Part shown: piece by piece, positions 4,290 to 32,713 of the stretch | Layout: each line of letters begins with the position of its first letter | Numbering within the stretch: position 1 is the stretch's first letter | Source of the DNA: Candidatus Spongiisociaceae bacterium | GTDB lineage: Bacteria > Actinomycetota > Acidimicrobiia > Spongiisociales > Spongiisociaceae | NCBI GenBank assembly: GCA_965262915.1 | Contig: OZ253564.1 | Location: 32,001 to 96,000, forward strand | Direction: 5' to 3' | DNA length: 64,000 bases | The notes under the pieces: generated by a model | What the model saw: the letters and a program-made list of their open reading frames with translations, nothing else | Databases searched by the model: none | Told to the model about the DNA's origin: nothing | Program-made: the position numbers and the translations under genes

Positions 4290-5105
4290 GTGATGGGTCC
4301 GGATGTTGCATACGACGAGCTGATCCCCGACCTTCGCCTCGATGGCAGGGTGGCCGCCGTGACGGGGGCCGGACGCGGGATCGGCCGGGAGACGGCCCGG
4401 ACGCTGGCCGCGGCCGGGGCTCATGTCCTGGTGACCGACATCGATGAGGCCGCCGCCCGGTACGCCGCCCGGGGTATCCGCCGGGAGGGCGGCTCGGCCG
4501 GCCACTACACCCTCGACGTCACGGACGAGGAACAGGTGAGGGGGTTCGCAAGGGAGGCGGAGCGCGCGGCGGGGGTCGCCCAGATCCTTGTCAACAACGC
4601 CGGGATCGTCACTATGGCCCCCTTCCTCGAGTTGGCGGAGGACGAGTTCGACGCGGTGGTGGCCGTGAGCCTGAGAGGGACCTACCTCATGACCCGGGCG
4701 CTGCTCCCCGCCATGAGGAGATCGGGCTGGGGTCGTGTGGTCTCGCTGTCCTCGATGCTGGGCAAGACCCCCGCCCCGTATGCGGCTCACTACTCGGCGG
4801 CCAAAGCGGCGATCATCGGCTTCACCCAGGCAATCGCCAAGGAGGCGGCCCCCGGAGTGACCGTCAATTGCCTGTGCCCCACCAATGTGGAGACCGGGAT
4901 CATGGAGGAGGACTTCGAGTTCTTCGGGGAGAAGGAAGGGATCTCCCCCGAGGCGCTCATGCGGCGTTGGATCGCTGCGATTCCCATGGGTCGACTGGGC
5001 CAACCCCTCGACGTGGCCCGGGCCGTGCTGTTGCTGGTCGGAGAAGCGGGAGCATTCACCACCGGCCAGGCCCTGAACGTGAGCGGGGGCGAAGAGGTCC
5101 ACTGA
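4290..5105 (+). CDS. SDR family NAD(P)-dependent oxidoreductase
   Basis: TGAGRGIG, NNAG and YSAAK motifs. Confidence 0.92.
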   Translation: MMGPDVAYDELIPDLRLDGRVAAVTGAGRGIGRETARTLAAAGAHVLVTDIDEAAARYAARGIRREGGSAGHYTLDVTDEEQVRGFAREAERAAGVAQILVNNAGIVTMAPFLELAEDEFDAVVAVSLRGTYLMTRALLPAMRRSGWGRVVSLSSMLGKTPAPYAAHYSAAKAAIIGFTQAIAKEAAPGVTVNCLCPTNVETGIMEEDFEFFGEKEGISPEALMRRWIAAIPMGRLGQPLDVARAVLLLVGEAGAFTTGQALNVSGGEEVH

Positions 5106-19167: not shown

Positions 19168-20423
19168 GCCCTACCCGACGTGGAGTTTCAAGCGGGCAGC
19201 GACCTAGTTCGGGTCCACCGGTGTCCAATATGTCGGGTCCCGTGTTACAGGTTCCTCGGAATATGTCCTCCCTCCAGAGCGTGCTTCCTCGGAGTCCCTA
19301 CGGTGTGTAGGGCTGCTCACCCGAAACGGGCATTGGCTGCGGCTGCGTACTGGGATACCCCGGCGGGCCACCCGGAGGGGCTTAGGAACCCGACTACACA
19401 AAGAAGTTGTCTAACCACCAACCGGGCGGATTGTCGAGGTTGCCGAGCTCGCCGACCACCCAATCGGGTATCGGGCCTGCGAGCAGGTCACTAACAAGGT
19501 CAAAGTGCCCGACGAGAAGATGTACTGCAGCATGCACTGCGGCGGCGTGAACCGGCGGCCTCTTGATCCAGTCACCGAGCAAGTAGACGGGTAATAGGCC
19601 GAAGACACAGTCGGGTTTGTCCTCATAAAGCGTCCTGTAATCGCCGAGGTTGACTACCCCGCTCAACCAATCGGCGATCGGTCTGTCGGTGACCTGCGCC
19701 AGGTATTCTGACGTGGAACGGGTCTGCTACTTGGAGGGCGTGGGGCAGCACCCTGTCATACGCCTTCCGATACGAACCGGACATGTCCAACACCGCCCAG
19801 CGGATACCCCCAAGCCAATCCGCCGGTTGTGACCGGAACCAGGCTGCGGCGCTTTCTGCTGTTTTACCAGGGACTATGTCGATCAGCTGGTGGCCCCCAA
19901 CGTCGACGACAGAGGTGCACCAGACTTTGGTGCGCCACCGGCCTTTCCGCCAGAACAACGTCTCGTCGATGCCCACAGCTTGGACCTCGCCTATCCGATC
20001 GGTGTCGGCTTCCAACAGGGCTTCGCCCCAGCGGACGACCTCGTTGTTCACCGTATGCCAATCACAACCCAACTCCGCGGCGACCTCGTCGACCGAACGG
20101 CCCCGCCCACCCACCTGGATGGTCACCCACCGCGCCGCTCGGGATGTCAACAACGCCCGTTGGGGACCAATCGTGGGGTCTTGTTCGATGAACGACCTGA
20201 GCGCACAGTCGGTGTTCGGACACGTCCAGCGCCGTTTCCGCCACCGCAGCCGCACAGGCCGACCGAACGCCGGTAAATCCACCAACACCACCCTCCGATA
20301 GCCCTTCGACCACACCGACCCGCCACATGCCACACACACCGGGCGGGCCTTGCGGGACCCGATCACCACCTTGAACCGCACCGGGTTTTCCGGAGACTCG
20401 ATTAGTTGGGAGATAATGGAGTC

Positions 20424-22815
<2,392 letters not shown>

Positions 22816-23647
22816 CAATATCTGTCCATTCGCTACACGAACCGGCTGGCGGAAGCCGGCATCGAGCCATCGGTCGGCTCGGTTGGGGATTCCTACGATA
22901 ACGCCCTCGCGGAGTCCGTCATTGGTCTGTACAAGACAGAACTCATCCACAAACGCGCTCCGTGGAAGGACCTCGACCAAGTCGAGTACGCCACCCTCGA
23001 ATACGTCGACTGGTTCAACCACCGGCGGCTTCTCGAACCCATCGGAGACATCCCACCAGCAGAAAAGGAGGCCAACTACCATCAACAACAGGAACGAGTC
23101 CAGCTAGCTGGACTCAAGTAAAACACTCTCCGGCAAACCCGGTACGGTTCACCTCAAGAGGTGCACCCTCGCCCGGGTCGTTGATCCCCACCAGATCAAC
23201 CTCACCTAGGCCTACCAACTTCTCGCACATGCGCGCAGGGATCAGCTTCCACAGGGGTCCTCCTGCCTCGGATGTCATTACCAACACCCGATTATGGAGG
23301 ACCCCTCCTCACTTCTGGTGGATTCCAACTCCCCCTGGCAGATCCCCTACTCCCCACTCATTTCCGAAGAGCCACATATCAAGCGTTGTGTAGCTCCCGC
23401 CCCCCTGTCGTCTAAGAACCGGAAACGACCACAAATATAGAACGCCCCTAGGAGTACCCCAGCGGAAGGGCTGTCCGCTGCCCACAGCGGGGAAGGGCAT
23501 GGGTTTGGCTCTTGCGGACACCCGGATGGGGGTGCTCTCCGCCGCTACCGGTCGGCCGGTAACGGCTGATCCTGCTCACCGGTTGTCGGAACCGTGTATC
23601 CGGGAACTGAAGTTATCGTGTCTTTGGGCAAGAGAAAAGGGGGCAGG

Positions 23648-23869
23648 ATGATCCTGCGACGATTCTTCCGCCTGCTGCTGAACAAGAACTGGCAGCCTTC
23701 CGCTTCAACCGTGGACGACTCGCTCGCCAAGACTGCCATGGACGCCCTGGACATACGGAGCGGACCGGGAGCGGGGGGCGCCGCCTTTCCAGGTACCAGC
23801 CAAGCGCACGAACGTATCGCCGAGGGCCACGAGAACTACACCAAGTCGTTCAAGAAGAAAGACAGCTAG
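23648..23869 (+). CDS. small hypothetical protein (73 aa)
   Basis: SD-like AAGGGGG before ATG; lies between repeat copies 1 and 2. Confidence 0.55.
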   Translation: MILRRFFRLLLNKNWQPSASTVDDSLAKTAMDALDIRSGPGAGGAAFPGTSQAHERIAEGHENYTKSFKKKDS

Positions 23870-24386
23870 CTAGCCCCGATTCTTCACCGGTTGGCGGTTC
23901 GGGAGTGTAGGCAGGCAGGGCGCCGCCCTGCTTCGCCCCTGCGACCCGTCGAGGGGGCCTCCGGGGTTGCCTGGCCGGTTCACAGGCGTGCTCACCTAGT
24001 CGGCAACAGGGCTCAACAGGGTCAAGGTCCTTCTTGGCTTATAAGGTCTCATGCAGTTCGGTCTGGCTCGACAAGGTGTTTCTCCCTTTCGAAATCGGGG
24101 CTTCTTTCATCGTGCCACTAACAACCCGACGACACCAACCCGAACGAAAGGGAACCCGCCAGTTGCCACCGGTGCCACAGCCACAGCGCCTGAGGCTCCA
24201 CAGCGGAAGGGTGCTCCGTTACCGGTCTTCCATGTCGGGAGGGCTAGCTGACACTGGCGCCGTCTCGTCAAGCCTGCTTACATCCGAACCTGCCCCTCCG
24301 AAGAATCAGGTCGTAGACTTGGGTGAACGGAAAGCACCCGGCCGTCCTGTACGGGGGACGCCGACGGTGGCACGACACGAGGAGTC

Positions 24387-24752
24387 ATGAACATGCTGCG
24401 CGTACCGATGATCATCCTGGCCGTTCTTTATCTTGCCTTCTCAGTATTCACCGCATTGGTGGGGGCCTTCGCCGACGGTGGCACGATTCCCGAGCGTATC
24501 CTCGTGAGCCTCATCCACCCGGCAGCAGCCATCCTGCTCCTCTTGGCGGTCGTCTCCTTTTCGAAGCCCATTTCAACGAGGCGTCGCGGGTTCACCCTGG
24601 TGTTGCTGCTGGTCGCCATCGCAGCAGACCTCGTGCTCGCCGTACTGATAGGCCTGGGTGTGGTAAAAGGTGATTGGTTCCTACCGCTGGTCTTCGCGGT
24701 CGTCCCCGTGATCGGAGTCGCCTACCTGACAGCGGGCGCCAAGACCACCTGA
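24387..24752 (+). CDS. 4-TM hypothetical membrane protein
   Basis: SD GAGGAG, four hydrophobic segments; lies between repeat copies 2 and 3. Confidence 0.75.
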   Translation: MNMLRVPMIILAVLYLAFSVFTALVGAFADGGTIPERILVSLIHPAAAILLLLAVVSFSKPISTRRRGFTLVLLLVAIAADLVLAVLIGLGVVKGDWFLPLVFAVVPVIGVAYLTAGAKTT

Positions 24753-24886
24753 GAAGCACACCGCCCCCAACTCTTCAAGAGGATGGGGTAGGTAGAGGCA
24801 CGCTTAGCCGAAGCCATGCCAAACTCCCCCCGGAGTCCCCCCAGCGGAAGGGTGCTCCGTTGCCGGTCTTCCTCGAGGCGCTGCCG

Positions 24887-25030
24887 CTACGGTCTCTTGC
24901 GCCATTTGTTAACCCAGCGCCAGGTCTTCACGACCCATCCGCGAAGCGTCGGCAACGCTAGGAGCGCGGTGGCCACCAGCACGCCCCCCGCTGCAGTGAG
25001 CACTCCCCAGATCAGATCAGAGCGTTCCAT
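24887..25030 (-). CDS. small single-TM protein with basic Trp-rich tail (47 aa)
   Basis: MERSDLIWGVLTAAGGVLVATALLALPTLRGWVVKTWRWVNKWRKRP; lies between repeat copies 3 and 4. Confidence 0.45.
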   Translation of the reverse strand: MERSDLIWGVLTAAGGVLVATALLALPTLRGWVVKTWRWVNKWRKRP

Positions 25031-25726
25031 TTTCAACTCCGGTTTGTTTGCCAGACCCAGATCACCACCAACCGAAACGGTCAACTGAGATGAGCAAAGG
25101 ACACCAAGGGCCCCGGCCTCTTATGACACGGATGTGATTCTAGAGATGGCCGTACCGGGCCAGGTCCAGGGTGGGCGGGGCTGAGCCTCGTTAACGGAAG
25201 GGTCCCCCGCTGCCGCCGCCCGGGCGAACAGCGAGGTAACCGGATCCCCCAGCACGCTATGCATGATCACTGCAGGCATCATCGTGCACCTACGGGCAGC
25301 TTTGCCGCAACTGAGTATCCCTATAAGGAGCTCGCACCATCGTCGTAATGAAGTGAGGCCGTCACCGTCAACACCGACGGACAACTTCGCCGAATCCGGG
25401 ATCATCACTACGCCGGCGGCGACCCCGACGGGGACCGTGGCGCCGGCTGTCCTGAGACGCCCAGCCTGCCTAACTCCCCCCAGACGCCCTCCAGGCGGAA
25501 GGGGATGTCCGCTGCCACCAGCAGTGGAAACCCTGGTCAAGGCACGACTCAGGACCGATTCAGGTGCACAAGTCCCACAGGCTGTACCACTGTCCACCGG
25601 AATACCCGACGCAGCCACGGGGCTAGATCGTCTCGACCGTCGTCCATTTACCCATCTTGCATTCGCGGAGGCCGGCCGGGTTCGAAGGGTCAAACCCGGG
25701 CGCGTCACGACTCGAGATGACGCGAC

Positions 25727-25761
25727 ACGGCTTCCCCTGCCCGAGCGGCAGGGGAAGCCGT
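25727..25761 (-). terminator. hairpin terminator after the substrate-binding protein gene
   Basis: ACGGCTTCCCCTGC-loop-GCAGGGGAAGCCGT, 14-bp stem. Confidence 0.7.
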
Positions 25762-25780
25762 CTGCGCCTTTCCTCAGGCT

Positions 25781-27079
25781 CTAGCTAGCGATGTCTCCGT
25801 TCGGGCCAACGCCGCTTCCGAGCGGCTGATTGATGAAGTCCACGAGGTCCTGTCTTGCCATGAGATCAGCGAAGACCTTGGCCTCGAGCTCGTAATCGTC
25901 CCAGGTCAGTTCCGGCATGGACGCGAACGCGGCCTGGCCGGGGATTCCGAACCACGTATCAGCGTTCTCGTCGTACAGGAGCGTGGCTGCCTCCTCGAGC
26001 GTGAAGAAGTGATTCAGCTCGGTGAGGATCTGGGTCGTGAGAAGCTCGCCCAGGCTTTCGCCTCCGGTCGCTGCCAGAGCGTCAGCCGTAACGAACTCCC
26101 CGACGATCTCCGGGTAAGCCTCGAGGTACCGGGCAGCCCGGTACCACGCGGCCACCGTCCTCAGCACGGTCTCGTAACAGCAGTCCAGGTAGTCCTGGCT
26201 CACTCCTTCGGTGCTGTACCACAGCGCCCGGCCGCCGAACAGCTCGAGCGGTCCGACCACGACGTACTGCCCGGCAAGCTCCTCTGAGTAGAGCATTCTT
26301 GCCTGCCGGTTCAAGGTCCCCAGGTAGAGATCGAACTCGCCGGCGAGGAACGCCTGCCCGAGGGCATCGCGGTTCGCGGGGCGCGAGATCACGACGTCAT
26401 CGAGGGTGAGGCCTATCTCCTCGAGGAAGATCCGGATGGGCGCCACCGATCCGCCCTCTTGGCGGGGAATGTCCTTGCCGCGGACGAACTCGGCTAGGTC
26501 CGCTTTCGCAGCCTCAACGTCGCCGTTGTTGTCGGCGAGAGCCTGTTCCCAGGTGAGATCTCCGGTGCGGCCGATGACCACGAAGCCCTTGTAGTGGTTG
26601 GTGATCAGGGGCGTGCGATACCCCGGGAACTCCTCCAGCACTGCCTGGTAGCAGAACTGGCACGAGAACAGCCAGTCGACCTCGCCGAGCGCGACCTGCT
26701 GGAACGGGATGTCCACGAACGGGATCAACTCGAACGTCAGGCCGAGCTGCTCCGGAATGCCGATGGCATCTGCGTATGCGAAGAGCCGATCGTCGTAACT
26801 CGGCGTGGTCCCGATGCGAACTACGCCGCCCCGACCGTCGTCGGGTGGCGTGGACAGGTCGTCCATCGGCTCCTCTGCCATCGTCGTGGCCGTCGCATCG
26901 CGCGCCACGGTCGGGATGGCCGCGGTCGTGGCTGGATCCGTGGTCGCTTGGGTTGGCTCGTCGTCCCCGCACGCCGCGGCAACGAGTGCCATGACCGTGA
27001 GGACGGCAACGAGTGGCAATCGGCGGTCCCAGACCCTTCTTCTCTTGGTTCTTCTCTCGGTCGTGGCTCGACGGTCCAT
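25781..27079 (-). CDS. ABC transporter substrate-binding lipoprotein (NitT/TauT/SsuA-like)
   Basis: Lipobox LVAAA-C, Thr-rich linker, ETVLRTVAAWYRA; downstream of a TauC-type permease. Confidence 0.75.
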   Translation of the reverse strand: MDRRATTERRTKRRRVWDRRLPLVAVLTVMALVAAACGDDEPTQATTDPATTAAIPTVARDATATTMAEEPMDDLSTPPDDGRGGVVRIGTTPSYDDRLFAYADAIGIPEQLGLTFELIPFVDIPFQQVALGEVDWLFSCQFCYQAVLEEFPGYRTPLITNHYKGFVVIGRTGDLTWEQALADNNGDVEAAKADLAEFVRGKDIPRQEGGSVAPIRIFLEEIGLTLDDVVISRPANRDALGQAFLAGEFDLYLGTLNRQARMLYSEELAGQYVVVGPLELFGGRALWYSTEGVSQDYLDCCYETVLRTVAAWYRAARYLEAYPEIVGEFVTADALAATGGESLGELLTTQILTELNHFFTLEEAATLLYDENADTWFGIPGQAAFASMPELTWDDYELEAKVFADLMARQDLVDFINQPLGSGVGPNGDIAS

Positions 27080-27167
27080 AACGTCCTCCCGTCTGTCGGT
27101 GCTGTTTTCTCAGATGCCCCTTGTTCCCGTTTTCTTCCGGCGCTGAAAGCAACTCGCTACACGAGCG

Positions 27168-28073
27168 TCACTGCCGTCCTATCAGTTCACCGGCGATGCC
27201 GGTTCCCTCGCCGCGAGGGCTCCATCTCGTTGCTCTGCGAGTGATCACCCTGATAATGTAGTCGGACACGACCGCCATGAAGGCGAAGATCAAGACGATC
27301 AGGACAACTCCTGCGGTGTCCAGATAGACGTTTCGCACGAGCATGATGTAGCCCAAGCCCTCGCGTGAGCCCATGAACTCGGCCGCGACATCGAGACCCC
27401 ACGCGGACATCACCGCAAATCGGATGGCAGCCAGCATGTGGGGCACGATCGCGGGAATGACGACCGTGCGATAGATGTGGAAGCGGGAAGCCCCGCTCAC
27501 GAGGGCGGCCTTGATGTATATCAGAGGCACGTTGCGGGCCGCCTCGGTGGTGTGGATGGTCAGGATGAGGAAGACTCCCGTCGCGATGAGGGCGATCTGT
27601 GGAGTCTTACCGATCCCGAACCAGAGAATGAACAGCGGAATCAGCGCAAAGAGAGGGATCGGCCTTACGGCATCGGTCGTAAACTCCAACAGGTTCCGAG
27701 CCCACCTGCTGTACCCGAAGGACAATCCGACCCCCAGCCCGAGCACTCCGCCGATCAGCAGGCCCAACCCGACCATCTCCATGGTCGTCAGCCACGCATC
27801 CGGGAGGATCGGCCAGAGCGCGACCAGGATCTTCCGGACCCGCTCCGGTTTCGGGATCACGATCTCGCGGAAGAGATCGAGAGCGCTCACAGCCCACCAC
27901 AGGAGCCCCAGCGACACCGGGAGGACGAACGGCGCGATTTTCCACAGGTTCCACTTCGGCTTGGATCCCGCGGTGGGGCCTTCTTGAGGCCGCGCTTTCC
28001 CGGTGGTCGCGTCGTATGCGCCGCTGTCTGTATCAGGAGACGGCCGGCCTTCGACTTTGACGCGTTCTGACAT
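27168..28073 (-). CDS. ABC transporter permease (NitT/TauT, SsuC/TauC-like)
   Basis: RPIPLFALIPLFILWFGIG, KAALVSGAS and VAAEFMGSREGLGY motifs. Confidence 0.9.
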   Translation of the reverse strand: MSERVKVEGRPSPDTDSGAYDATTGKARPQEGPTAGSKPKWNLWKIAPFVLPVSLGLLWWAVSALDLFREIVIPKPERVRKILVALWPILPDAWLTTMEMVGLGLLIGGVLGLGVGLSFGYSRWARNLLEFTTDAVRPIPLFALIPLFILWFGIGKTPQIALIATGVFLILTIHTTEAARNVPLIYIKAALVSGASRFHIYRTVVIPAIVPHMLAAIRFAVMSAWGLDVAAEFMGSREGLGYIMLVRNVYLDTAGVVLIVLIFAFMAVVSDYIIRVITRRATRWSPRGEGTGIAGELIGRQ

Positions 28074-30931: not shown

Positions 30932-32713
30932 ATGCGCCGGCGGGCACCAAGGCAAAGTGAGTTGAGGGCGATGTTCGATGTCCGGGTCCCGATGCGAGAC
31001 GGGACCCTGCTGTCGGCGGACGTCTACCTTCCTGCATCGGAGGGGCCCTTCCCGGCCCTTCTCTGCCGGACGATCTACAGCAAGGACAGCAACCCGGAGA
31101 CCGACGGTGCCAGACCCGCCGGTTACGTCGGTTGGGCTGCGACTTTCGCCGAGAACGGCTATGCCGTGGTGATCCAGGATTGCCGGGGGCGCTACGAGTC
31201 GGATGGGGTCTTCCAGGTGTATCTCGAGGCAGAGGACGGCTACGACACGATCGAATGGCTGGGGGGCCAGGACTGGTGCGACGGCAACGTCGGCGGATTC
31301 GGCATCTCCAATCCCGGCTCAACCCAGACCCAGGCGGCGCGCATGGCGAGCCCTTATCTGAAAGCCGTCATGCCCGTCGGTGCCTCGGTCGAGGCCTACG
31401 GCGCCGTGTGGGACGGGAGGGGCGTGCTTTCCCTTCAACTCGCCATGCACCACGGGTTGCAGACGGGCAGAAGGGCCATGCACCCTCGAGGAGTAGCCGT
31501 GCTGTCCGGTCTTCCACCGGGAAGCGTGGGCGTCGGGGGCCTCGACGCCCGTGGCCCGTCCGCCGACCTGTCCTACCTGTACAGGCGGCTGCCTCTGGCG
31601 GCGGCCCTCGACGAGTTTGGTGACGCTCACCGCTGGCGTGCCGAGTTCCTCGCGCATCCACGGTTCGACGACCACTGGCGAGCCCGGGGAATGAACGATC
31701 GCTATGAGTCATTGACCGCCCCGGCCTATTTCGTCACCGGCTGGTACGACTGCCTGGCGAGGGAAGTCATCGACAGCTTCGTGAAGTGGCGAGCGACGGC
31801 CAAAACCGAGGAGGCGCGTCGCCTCACCCGGATCATGGTCGGCCCGTGGACGCACACGAGGATCGGCGTGAGCGATTACGTGGAGGGTGTGGATTTCGGG
31901 AGCGAGGCGGCCATGGATCTCACCCACCTACACCTGCACTGGTACGACCAGAGATTGAAAGGGATCGACACCGGAGTCGATGCCGAGGCCCCGGTGCAGA
32001 TCTTCGTGATGGGAGAGAACACGTGGAGAGGCGAGCAAGAATGGCCCCTCGCCCGAACTTCGTACACCCCCCTCTACCTGAGCAGCGGCGGGAAGGCCAA
32101 CTCCGCCTCCGGAGACGGGGCCCTGACCTGGGACGAACCCGGATCAGACCCTCCGGACGGCTACGTCTACGACCCCGAAGACCCGGTGCCGACCTGGGGC
32201 GGGCAAAGCGCCTACGTCGAGACGAGCGGCCCGAGCGATCGGCGATCGGTCGAAGATCGACCGGATGTTCTCGTCTACAGCGCCCCAACGGTTTCCCGTG
32301 ACACCGAGGTCACCGGGCCGATCACGGTCGTCCTGTATGCAGCGTCGGATTCCGCCGACACGGACTTCACCGCGACTTTGATCGATGTCTGGCCGGACGG
32401 CAGGGCCACCCACATCACCGACGGGATCATCCGCGCCCGCTATCGGGTGTCCACCGAGTCCGAGAGCTTCATCACGCCGAACGAGGTCTACGAATACGAG
32501 ATTCAGCTCTCCCCGACCAGCCACGTTTTCCTGTCCGGCCATCGGATTCGTCTCGAAATCTCGAGCAGTGACTTTCCCCGATTCGACCGAAACCTCAATA
32601 CTGGCGGCGAGATAGGAATGGAATCGGAGGGACGAGCCGCGAGCCAGCGGGTGTTCCACGACCGGGAACGGCCGAGTCGCATCGTCCTCCCGATCATTCC
32701 CCGCGACCGGTAG
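30932..32713 (+). CDS. CocE/NonD family hydrolase (peptidase S15)
   Basis: VPMRDGTLLSADVY, QDCRGRYESDG, GISNPG, GWYD, GPWTH and SSSDFPRFDRN motifs; TACACT -10 box lies 6 nt before ATG. Confidence 0.92.
   Translation: MRRRAPRQSELRAMFDVRVPMRDGTLLSADVYLPASEGPFPALLCRTIYSKDSNPETDGARPAGYVGWAATFAENGYAVVIQDCRGRYESDGVFQVYLEAEDGYDTIEWLGGQDWCDGNVGGFGISNPGSTQTQAARMASPYLKAVMPVGASVEAYGAVWDGRGVLSLQLAMHHGLQTGRRAMHPRGVAVLSGLPPGSVGVGGLDARGPSADLSYLYRRLPLAAALDEFGDAHRWRAEFLAHPRFDDHWRARGMNDRYESLTAPAYFVTGWYDCLAREVIDSFVKWRATAKTEEARRLTRIMVGPWTHTRIGVSDYVEGVDFGSEAAMDLTHLHLHWYDQRLKGIDTGVDAEAPVQIFVMGENTWRGEQEWPLARTSYTPLYLSSGGKANSASGDGALTWDEPGSDPPDGYVYDPEDPVPTWGGQSAYVETSGPSDRRSVEDRPDVLVYSAPTVSRDTEVTGPITVVLYAASDSADTDFTATLIDVWPDGRATHITDGIIRARYRVSTESESFITPNEVYEYEIQLSPTSHVFLSGHRIRLEISSSDFPRFDRNLNTGGEIGMESEGRAASQRVFHDRERPSRIVLPIIPRDR

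Follow-up and report, generated by a model that had tools for sequence, protein, structure and literature searches.

Co-oriented inverted-repeat sites bound small recurrent modules in the genomic islands of an actinobacterium: candidate crossover sites for a tyrosine recombinase

The stretch of DNA analyzed here (the window, 64,000 nucleotides) comes from Candidatus Spongiisociaceae bacterium and covers positions 32001–96000 of a genome (G000) that is assembled as a single 5.06-Mb contig with 64.4% G+C. Between window positions 23460 and 25516 lie five inverted repeats of 21–23 nucleotides (nt) that share one orientation (Table 1) and conform to the consensus CAGCGGA (arm CARCGGA), an asymmetric 7–8-nt spacer starting with A/G-GGG, TCCGYTG, and then CC. 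From the anatomy of this core site, its distribution among genomes and its variation in natural populations, we infer a mechanism in which the core is, on balance, probably a crossover site for a tyrosine recombinase and bounds modules that are mobilized in trans.

The inverted-repeat array is confirmed as real and non-random. When up to two mismatches are allowed, the pattern has nine strand-matches in the window against 2.04 expected, a count reached by one of 100 shuffles; seven of the nine are array sites, palindromic sites being counted on both strands. Genome-wide, the pattern with at most one mismatch yields 33 matches, compared with none for the same pattern read backwards, and a weight matrix built from the copies, applied at 16 bits or more, yields 59 matches compared with two in the reversed genome. 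The preliminary description of this DNA had reported five co-oriented copies spaced by 741, 641, 350 and about 300 nt, all of which is borne out with core 5 placed at 25493, as is the near-identity of copies 2 and 3, which match at 30 of 31 nt from CAGCGG through TCTTCC. An upstream stretch that was said to be common to copies 1, 3 and 5 can be recognized in copies 3 and 5 (28 nt at 82%) and is weak in copy 1, while a "weaker copy" near 23484 belongs to a recurrent right-hand flank and is no separate site. The size of 21 bp given for the repeat proved too small, as the flanks are conserved for up to about 140 nt on the left side and up to about 150 nt on the right.

Across the genome, between about 55 and 59 core copies, depending on the search, are distributed over at least 17 clusters, and an iterated profile search recovered, in 17 clusters, 54 copies of a core-centered element that measures about 125 nt. 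The flanks of the core are drawn from a few left types and a few right types that are mixed freely around the same core, in the manner of a mosaic, and many of the profile matches are half elements, in which a left flank and core are followed by a gene and then by a core and right flank. Of the adjacent site pairs within 3.5 kb of each other, 23 of 28 are co-oriented (p = 0.0009); the intervening genes have either orientation with respect to the site. The preliminary description had allowed that the copies might instead encode a peptide, RKG.PLP, within a gene used as an integration target, a reading that is rejected because 52 of 55 sites fall outside called open reading frames (ORFs) and the flanks differ by insertions and deletions. 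Dispersal of single copies throughout the genome had been named as the pattern that would speak against serial recombination, and it is not what is found: the motif is clustered, and the clusters are confined to islands rich in transposases, integrases and defense genes. Among 130 ORFs scanned near the sites, many encode ISL3, IS3, IS30, IS110 and other transposases or tyrosine integrases, and others encode primase-helicase proteins or defense-type proteins (SMODS, KAP NTPase, Fic, AbiEi, a restriction methylase, DUF4062 and T5orf172).

The flanks themselves have recurrent features. One left-flank type, of about 140 nt, ends in a decayed reading-frame tail, which in the window (25400–25460) and in about ten other flanks ends in W-L-S followed by a stop codon, with codon-like third-position changes and an in-frame 3-nt indel; this codon-like variation suggests the decayed tail of a gene. 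The possibility that the left flank is the end of a real gene was set aside, since the upstream frames are short and broken (4 to 206 codons) and no intact parent gene was found. One right-flank type, of about 150 nt, carries two invariant boxes, GTCCCAC and GT(A/C)CCAC, 12 nt apart, which may be putative accessory or arm-type binding sites. The box pair is present at window positions 25572–25590 and in 13 other right flanks, at about 75–95 nt past the core. A T-arm-like stretch followed by GTACCAC had invited a tRNA-like reading of the right flanks, which was abandoned: ARAGORN predicts neither a tRNA nor a tmRNA at any of the copies, none of the tRNA genes in the genome has a 3' end that matches the right flanks, there is no fold, and the boxes are now read as a direct repeat with 12-nt spacing.

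The distribution of the site is narrow. In a pattern search with at most one mismatch it occurs in two of the eight genomes of the genus, G000 with 33 matches and a second congener, G001, with nine; the same search found no site in the other six congeners. Among 53 other relatives, two have a single one-mismatch match each, about the level of the reversed control, and an exact scan covering 185,579 species, each represented by one genome, returned 58 stretches, nearly all of them singletons. The multi-copy exceptions in that scan were one metagenome-assembled genome with three loci and Actinomadura barringtoniae (G062) with four; the record L045, from genome G061, turned out to be a real array once the matching was loosened. 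A scan of metagenomes gave 85 loci, nearly all single chance matches, and recovered copies of one known array type and nothing else.

One indication that the sites bound mobile units comes from the recurrence of modules whose limits coincide with cores. Window positions 24201–24864, which extend from core 2 to core 3, are 84–85% identical to genome positions 657525–657874 plus 663459–663772, a paralogous module (657525–663772) that is likewise bounded by cores and is interrupted by about 5.6 kb of insertion sequences; the homology runs from the first base of one core to the final base of the other. A 2-kb module at genome 2848109–2850086 matches 1485825–1488956, with different outer flanks, and a serine-protease module at genome 2869374–2870787 is 90% identical to a segment of G001 (record L019:8476–9885) that also lies between cores and has different neighbors. 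A DUF4062 module is found between cores at three places, once in G001 and twice in G000. Endpoints of low-copy matches are enriched within 30 nt of a core (34 of 376, against 1.3% of random positions), although most of them fall away from cores despite this enrichment. Identical gene order among relatives, with no gain or loss of whole units, was the second outcome that would have contradicted the preliminary interpretation; units differ both between genomes and between metagenome contigs. A synteny search among congeners for an empty site returned only matches at the paralogue level (about 70%) and was uninformative.

The contents of the modules are varied (Table 1). Of 29 between-site proteins, five match PADLOC families (ZacB, ZacC, PDC-S31, PDC-S57 and a methylase) and the other 24 match none. 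Two cores of one array enclose the ZacB/ZacC pair, whose PADLOC matches are very strong (genome 2840067–2845315; record L015:6067–11312). In the window, the first three intervals had been described as each holding a small orphan ORF, which has to be qualified: paralogues exist for the 121-aa four-helix membrane gene (genome 657.5–663.8 kb and 353.8 kb) and for the 91-aa ORF (1950.1 kb), and a 47-aa ORF is unsupported as a gene. Neither the 91-aa ORF nor the membrane gene has a Pfam or PADLOC match, and module 3 has no Pfam match. The sub-module within module 1 is also found at genome 1422.1 kb and 1238.7 kb, the left flank in module 4 carries the decayed reading-frame tail, here ending in TGA, and the terminal right flank is repeated at genome 518.4 kb and 1263.7 kb.

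Table 1. Core sites, modules and terminal flank of the array (window coordinates).
Feature	Position	Strand	Description
Core site 1	23460..23482	+	CAGCGGA, spacer AGGGCTG, TCCGCTG, then CC
Module 1, composite	23483..24200	+	Recurrent right flank 23483-23530, 91-aa ORF 23594-23869, sub-module 24011-24190
Core site 2	24201..24223	+	Spacer AGGGTGC
Module 2	24224..24841	+	121-aa gene with four hydrophobic segments, 24387-24752
Core site 3	24842..24864	+	Spacer AGGGTGC, identical to core site 2
Module 3	24865..25191	.	No supported gene; sole 65-aa ORF on minus strand, 24887-25084
Core site 4	25192..25214	+	Degenerate: TAACGGA, AGGGTCC, CCCGCTG, then CC
Module 4	25215..25492	+	No ORF; recurrent right flank 25215-25261, recurrent left flank 25357-25492
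Core site 5	25493..25516	+	AGGCGGA, 8-nt spacer AGGGGATG, TCCGCTG, then CC
Terminal right flank	25517..25662	+	About 150 nt; GTCCCAC 25572-25578, GTACCAC 25584-25590

Natural populations provide a further view of the same array. Twenty sequencing runs from eight studies, none of them listed as RNA, contain at least half of the sampled words of this stretch, and contigs were compared from four runs belonging to four studies; such assembled contigs display alternative adjacencies, not intermediates or circles. Loose ends and joints of contigs pile up at the edges of cores 1–3 (23457–23460, 24201, 24833–24845 and 24863), and contigs occur in which alternative left-flank types are joined directly to core 1 or core 3. 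Other contig break points are located at 23494, 24011, 24190, 24882, 25437–25440 and 25462–25475. In three of the four runs a contig links the end of core 3 (24863) to a short left flank before core 5 (25437), omitting 573 nt. In runs X5, X16 and X20 the summed contig depth over 24011–24894 is two- to four-fold above that of the neighboring modules, which suggests extra copies or more carriers in the sampled communities.

The core has the layout of tyrosine-recombinase core sites, with inverted arms of 6–7 bp, an asymmetric spacer of 7 nt and asymmetric outer bases. Inverted arms around a directional spacer had been claimed for it from the start, and they are present, with a 7-nt spacer and with arms that vary like the half-sites of a protein. 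In an alignment of 93 sites from G000, G001 and A. barringtoniae, the arms CARCGG(A) and the first spacer bases are nearly invariant. At the variable third arm position the two arms would pair as GC in 35 sites, GU in 26 and AU in 11 and are unpaired in 17; paired cells amount to 86.2%, compared with 86.1% in shuffles, so the half-sites vary independently and without compensatory change. Neither strand of the full element folds better than shuffled sequences do (single-sequence z-scores of -1.17 and +0.79), the 14 right flanks have no consensus fold, and a search of window positions 20000–28000 against Rfam, at E-values up to 1, matched only the frameshift pseudoknot of an IS3-type element. 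A structured RNA was rejected on the absence of an Rfam family for the repeats, of covariation in the stem and of a fold. Since the half-sites vary independently and no fold is evident, a double-stranded protein-binding site fits better than a selected hairpin, and the core looks like two half-sites for a dimeric DNA-binding protein. An exceptional copy at genome 302570–302595 (record L001, about 4570–4595) has a 12-nt spacer that derives from a 5-nt duplication within the spacer.

An explanation that dispenses with any dedicated enzyme would make the core a palindrome resembling a repetitive extragenic palindrome (REP) or a miniature inverted-repeat transposable element (MITE), or an operator or terminator, of one island family, with the mosaic arising through homologous recombination or template switching. 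The core is indeed a GC-rich palindrome that is intergenic in nearly all cases and sits within larger conserved flanks, break points at the core are to be expected wherever it is the sole common stretch, and the contigs contain no recombination intermediate. Yet a common stretch of 21–23 bp is a poor substrate for homologous recombination, the palindrome is not followed by a run of T, its arms do not covary in pairing, and the arrays are co-oriented, neither alternating nor tracking the direction of genes. The site is also confined to islands and absent from six congeners, and its arms and the RGGG with which the spacer starts are kept between distant actinobacterial lineages in which the flanks differ, which argues for specific recognition. 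REP sequences associated with RAYT (REP-associated tyrosine transposase) depend on a Y1 transposase and are dispersed among core genes, often in alternating orientation, and neither is the case here: no RAYT or Y1 transposase was found in the genome, with no match to PF01797 in G000 compared with matches in six of 14 control genomes. A MITE was rejected in addition because the outer ends of the full element lack terminal inverted repeats, the only such feature being an internal 11-nt inverted pair around core 5. Taken together, these observations make the enzyme-free account unlikely.

Under the mechanism that we favor, a tyrosine recombinase supplied in trans would act on the double-stranded core of 21–23 bp, with strand exchange taking place within it. 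The DNA between co-oriented cores would constitute a module that could be excised as a circle carrying one core and could re-insert at any other core, with the consequence that modules are deleted or reshuffled, and repeated rounds would build co-oriented arrays in genomic islands. Tandem insertion followed by decay of integrase-bearing elements probably contributes as well: because integrase fragments lie inside several arrays, these may stem in part from such accretion and decay.

That the recombinase is encoded elsewhere is plausible. No serine recombinase was found in G000, which has 29 tyrosine-recombinase matches, including two ordinary Xer genes at genome 2013.5 kb and 2402.7 kb. The leading candidate is a 332-aa Xer-like protein encoded at genome 1430691–1431686, at a distance of 0.9 kb from the last core of the largest cluster; a second integrase family is the alternative, and the link to the sites is weak. 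The 332-aa protein is collinear with XerD (1a0p) over residues 48–314, has conserved catalytic motifs, with putative catalytic residues assigned by comparison with XerD, and contains no large insertion. The protein reaches none of the curated cut-offs, scoring 140 bits for XerC (cut-off 335) and 75.8 for the integron integrase (cut-off 265). A 77%-identical fragment of it lies inside another array, at genome 2846198–2846443, and G061 has a 70%-identical homologue (contig C22:32953–33954) surrounded by the cores of that genome (C22: 28084, 38909, 39070, 40735 and 42140), the only other G061 match being one with two mismatches on contig C13. In 400 other genomes of the class there is one homologue, 61% identical and with a stop, in a genome without sites. 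Core-like strings beside a 50%-identical paralogue in G001 (contig C68) are inside genes and were set aside as chance matches. The second family, whose type copy is at genome 1434917–1435942, comprises 17 copies or fragments, of which nine are within 5 kb of a core, a zone that makes up 6.2% of the genome; several of these are fragments inside arrays, and the G001 array contains two more copies or fragments. At genome 2846198–2846749, inside an array, fragments of both families adjoin each other on opposite strands.

Several observations weigh against the mechanism proposed above, or limit its reach. The last three positions of the spacer are variable, with 25 types among 55 sites, and only four of 23 co-oriented neighbors have the same spacer, which would limit full two-strand exchange between most pairs. 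Module boundaries at 24011, 24190 and 25437 are not at cores, which implies that other processes also act; the joint between 24863 and 25437 in the metagenome contigs is likewise not core-to-core, and a comparison of core polymorphisms between examples gave no consistent crossover point. No recombination event was directly visible in the assembled contigs. As for the enzyme, the G061 homologue of the 332-aa protein has two internal stops, G001 has at least nine sites yet only a 50% paralogue, and decayed copies without sites occur in G005 (75% identical) and G349. The zone within 12 kb of arrays is also enriched in integrases that belong to other families (8 of 16), which indicates that the co-location of recombinases and arrays is in part a general island effect. 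In A. barringtoniae, finally, the core is tied to another kind of gene, described below, and not to the 332-aa recombinase, whose best homologue there is 31% identical. The original idea of cassette-like, serial site-specific recombination by a putative recombinase is favored, neither of the patterns named against it having been found.

The integrase fragments also lend themselves to a simpler history, in which the cores are scars only: complete integrase-bearing elements would have accreted in tandem at the same core and then decayed, leaving remnants that are immobile on their own. The association of the second integrase family with cores in both site-bearing congeners is compatible with this, as are a P4-type integrase whose start is about 620 nt past the core at genome 1238416, the possibility that the repeated right-flank boxes are arm-type sites, and a core at genome 2838581 that adjoins a degenerate 3' fragment of tRNA-Leu, a typical island end. 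That fragment (genome 2838601–2838680; record L015, about 4601–4680), a degenerate 3' copy of tRNA-Leu(UAA), abuts the core in opposite orientation and looks like the remnant of an island attachment site; the intact tRNA-Leu(UAA) gene is at genome 1411160, with an integrase alongside. Integrative and conjugative elements (ICEs) accreted in tandem, and cis-mobilizable elements (CIMEs), offer a precedent in the streptococcal ICE literature, where direct att cores similarly separate integrase-less blocks that are perhaps mobilized in trans, and integrase fragments occur in the arrays described here. The units in the present case are far smaller than CIMEs (about 60 nt to 2 kb), number up to nine per cluster and include recurring single-gene modules. 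That integrase-less modules of 0.06–2 kb, with a single gene or none, recur in varied contexts and bounded by cores is hard to explain by decay alone, and no intact integrase of the second family lies directly beside a core. We consider an origin of the arrays purely as scars improbable.

The other kind of gene that is associated with the core encodes DUF222-HNH proteins. In A. barringtoniae, 10 of 12 DUF222 matches have cores within about 0.4–0.8 kb, and these ten comprise all nine of the 423-aa frames and one frame truncated at a contig end. The gene has a single core on its upstream side, in inverted orientation, and at least one on its downstream side, where tandem units of 174 nt, every one of them containing a core, are frequent (6.1 copies in record L043). 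Examples, with genes of 420 aa, are found at L043:1233–4290, L065:4003–6640 and L077:4003–5990. In this species the same core thus forms both ends of a multi-copy DUF222-HNH element. These inverted pairs raise the possibility that the core marks the terminus of a selfish element driven by a DUF222-HNH (REP13E12-like) nuclease and that the modules of G000 are non-autonomous derivatives moved in trans by the DUF222-HNH proteins of that genome, and G000 does carry seven DUF222 genes. None of the seven, however, has a core within 2.5 kb; a core-like palindrome adjoins one of them, and the seven copies have just the gene in common, so a DUF222 link in G000 is not supported. The core array of G061 exists in a genome with no DUF222 match, and 28 of the 31 relatives searched have DUF222 (27 of 30 if the unpublished G032 is left out), compared with cores in two of eight genomes of the genus. 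A selfish DUF222-HNH element as the source of the arrays is, on this evidence, very unlikely. The REP13E12/HNH/DUF222 group is a listed class of repetitive elements in Mycobacterium, and the passage of PMC10589994 that lists it describes no terminal sites of this kind for REP13E12.

To the left of the array, window positions 19626–23375 are occupied by nested insertion sequences: an IS30-type element (21369–22769) interrupts an IS3-type element, which in turn interrupts one of the ISL3 type. The IS3-type element carries the frameshift pseudoknot, at 20702–20818. Positions 23150–23375 correspond to a 224-nt repeat with about 45 copies in the genome (87–99% identity), which coincides elsewhere with the start end of ISL3-type transposase genes, for example at genome 656979–657202. 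The right border of the array is a convergent transporter gene. Just 3' of this convergent 432-aa gene of a transporter cluster, an inverted repeat with perfectly matching 15-bp arms and a 5-nt loop (25727–25761) is probably its terminator.

Integrons and the dif modules of Acinetobacter are the two known systems in which short recombination sites serve to store and reshuffle single genes, and these are the closest functional parallels to the arrays. Dif modules (pdif, XerC/XerD) are likewise small accessory modules that are bounded by inverted-arm sites, occur in varied contexts and carry no recombinase of their own, and their sites have inverted arms around a spacer of 6–8 bp, a feature that the 93-site alignment reveals here as well. 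The sites flanking dif modules are oppositely oriented, in contrast to the mostly direct repeats of the present arrays (23 of 28 pairs); inverted pairs of cores are seen only around the DUF222 genes of A. barringtoniae. Dif modules are located on Rep_3 plasmids, have sites resembling the dif site of the host and use the host XerC/XerD, whereas the arrays described here are in chromosomal islands of an actinobacterium and their enzyme may be a dedicated Xer-like paralogue. The core sequence is presumably unrelated to dif sites. According to PMC13141974, dif modules are found uniquely in Acinetobacter.

With integrons the arrays have in common co-oriented sites that alternate with single genes or gene-less units, and, as in integrons including attC clusters without an integrase, genomes possess the same cassettes in different orders. 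Some of the cargo is related to defense, as the five PADLOC matches among the 29 module proteins indicate, and may be compared with that treated in a preprint (10.1101/2024.07.02.601686). The remaining hallmarks are missing. A search of the whole genome with the IntI model TIGR02249 gave 63.1 bits for the best of 12 matches, so that the range reached (63–76 bits, including the 332-aa protein) is far from the cut-off of 265, and the 332-aa protein lacks the IntI-specific insertion in the catalytic domain, the position of which is supported by PMC8138268. The paired ends and hairpin fold of attC are not seen by eye in the aligned copies, which show no covariation; unlike attC, the element is conserved at its center and not at its ends, and the orientation of the genes is mixed. 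A GCCTAAC box is present in one left-flank type, with no GTTAGGC partner at a consistent position. The early statement that the sites are not attC holds, given that no IntI scores above the cut-off and that no paired RYYYAAC/GTTRRRY ends are visible by eye. Because defining features of both systems were looked for and are lacking, the arrays belong neither to integrons nor to dif modules. When full texts were searched for cassette arrays of an integron-like or Xer-like kind in Actinomycetota, nothing comparable came up, and the passages of PMC10589994, PMC8138268 and PMC13141974 considered here describe no such system in that phylum.

A more far-reaching proposal, which is possible and which we put forward tentatively, is that the arrays represent an undescribed cassette platform of Actinomycetota, in which a dedicated Xer-like recombinase would shuffle promoter-independent modules, some of them anti-phage, at a conserved, double-stranded 7-7-7 core. 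Such a platform would be a third, independently evolved solution to the storage and reshuffling of single genes, and its core would have been adopted as the terminal site of DUF222-HNH elements in Actinomadura. If an Xer-like enzyme does recombine these sites, they would constitute a new and experimentally tractable cassette system. This could help to explain how uncultured actinobacteria from marine or soil habitats exchange defense and accessory genes within their islands, and it could hint at the mechanism by which the long-unexplained DUF222-HNH repeats move.

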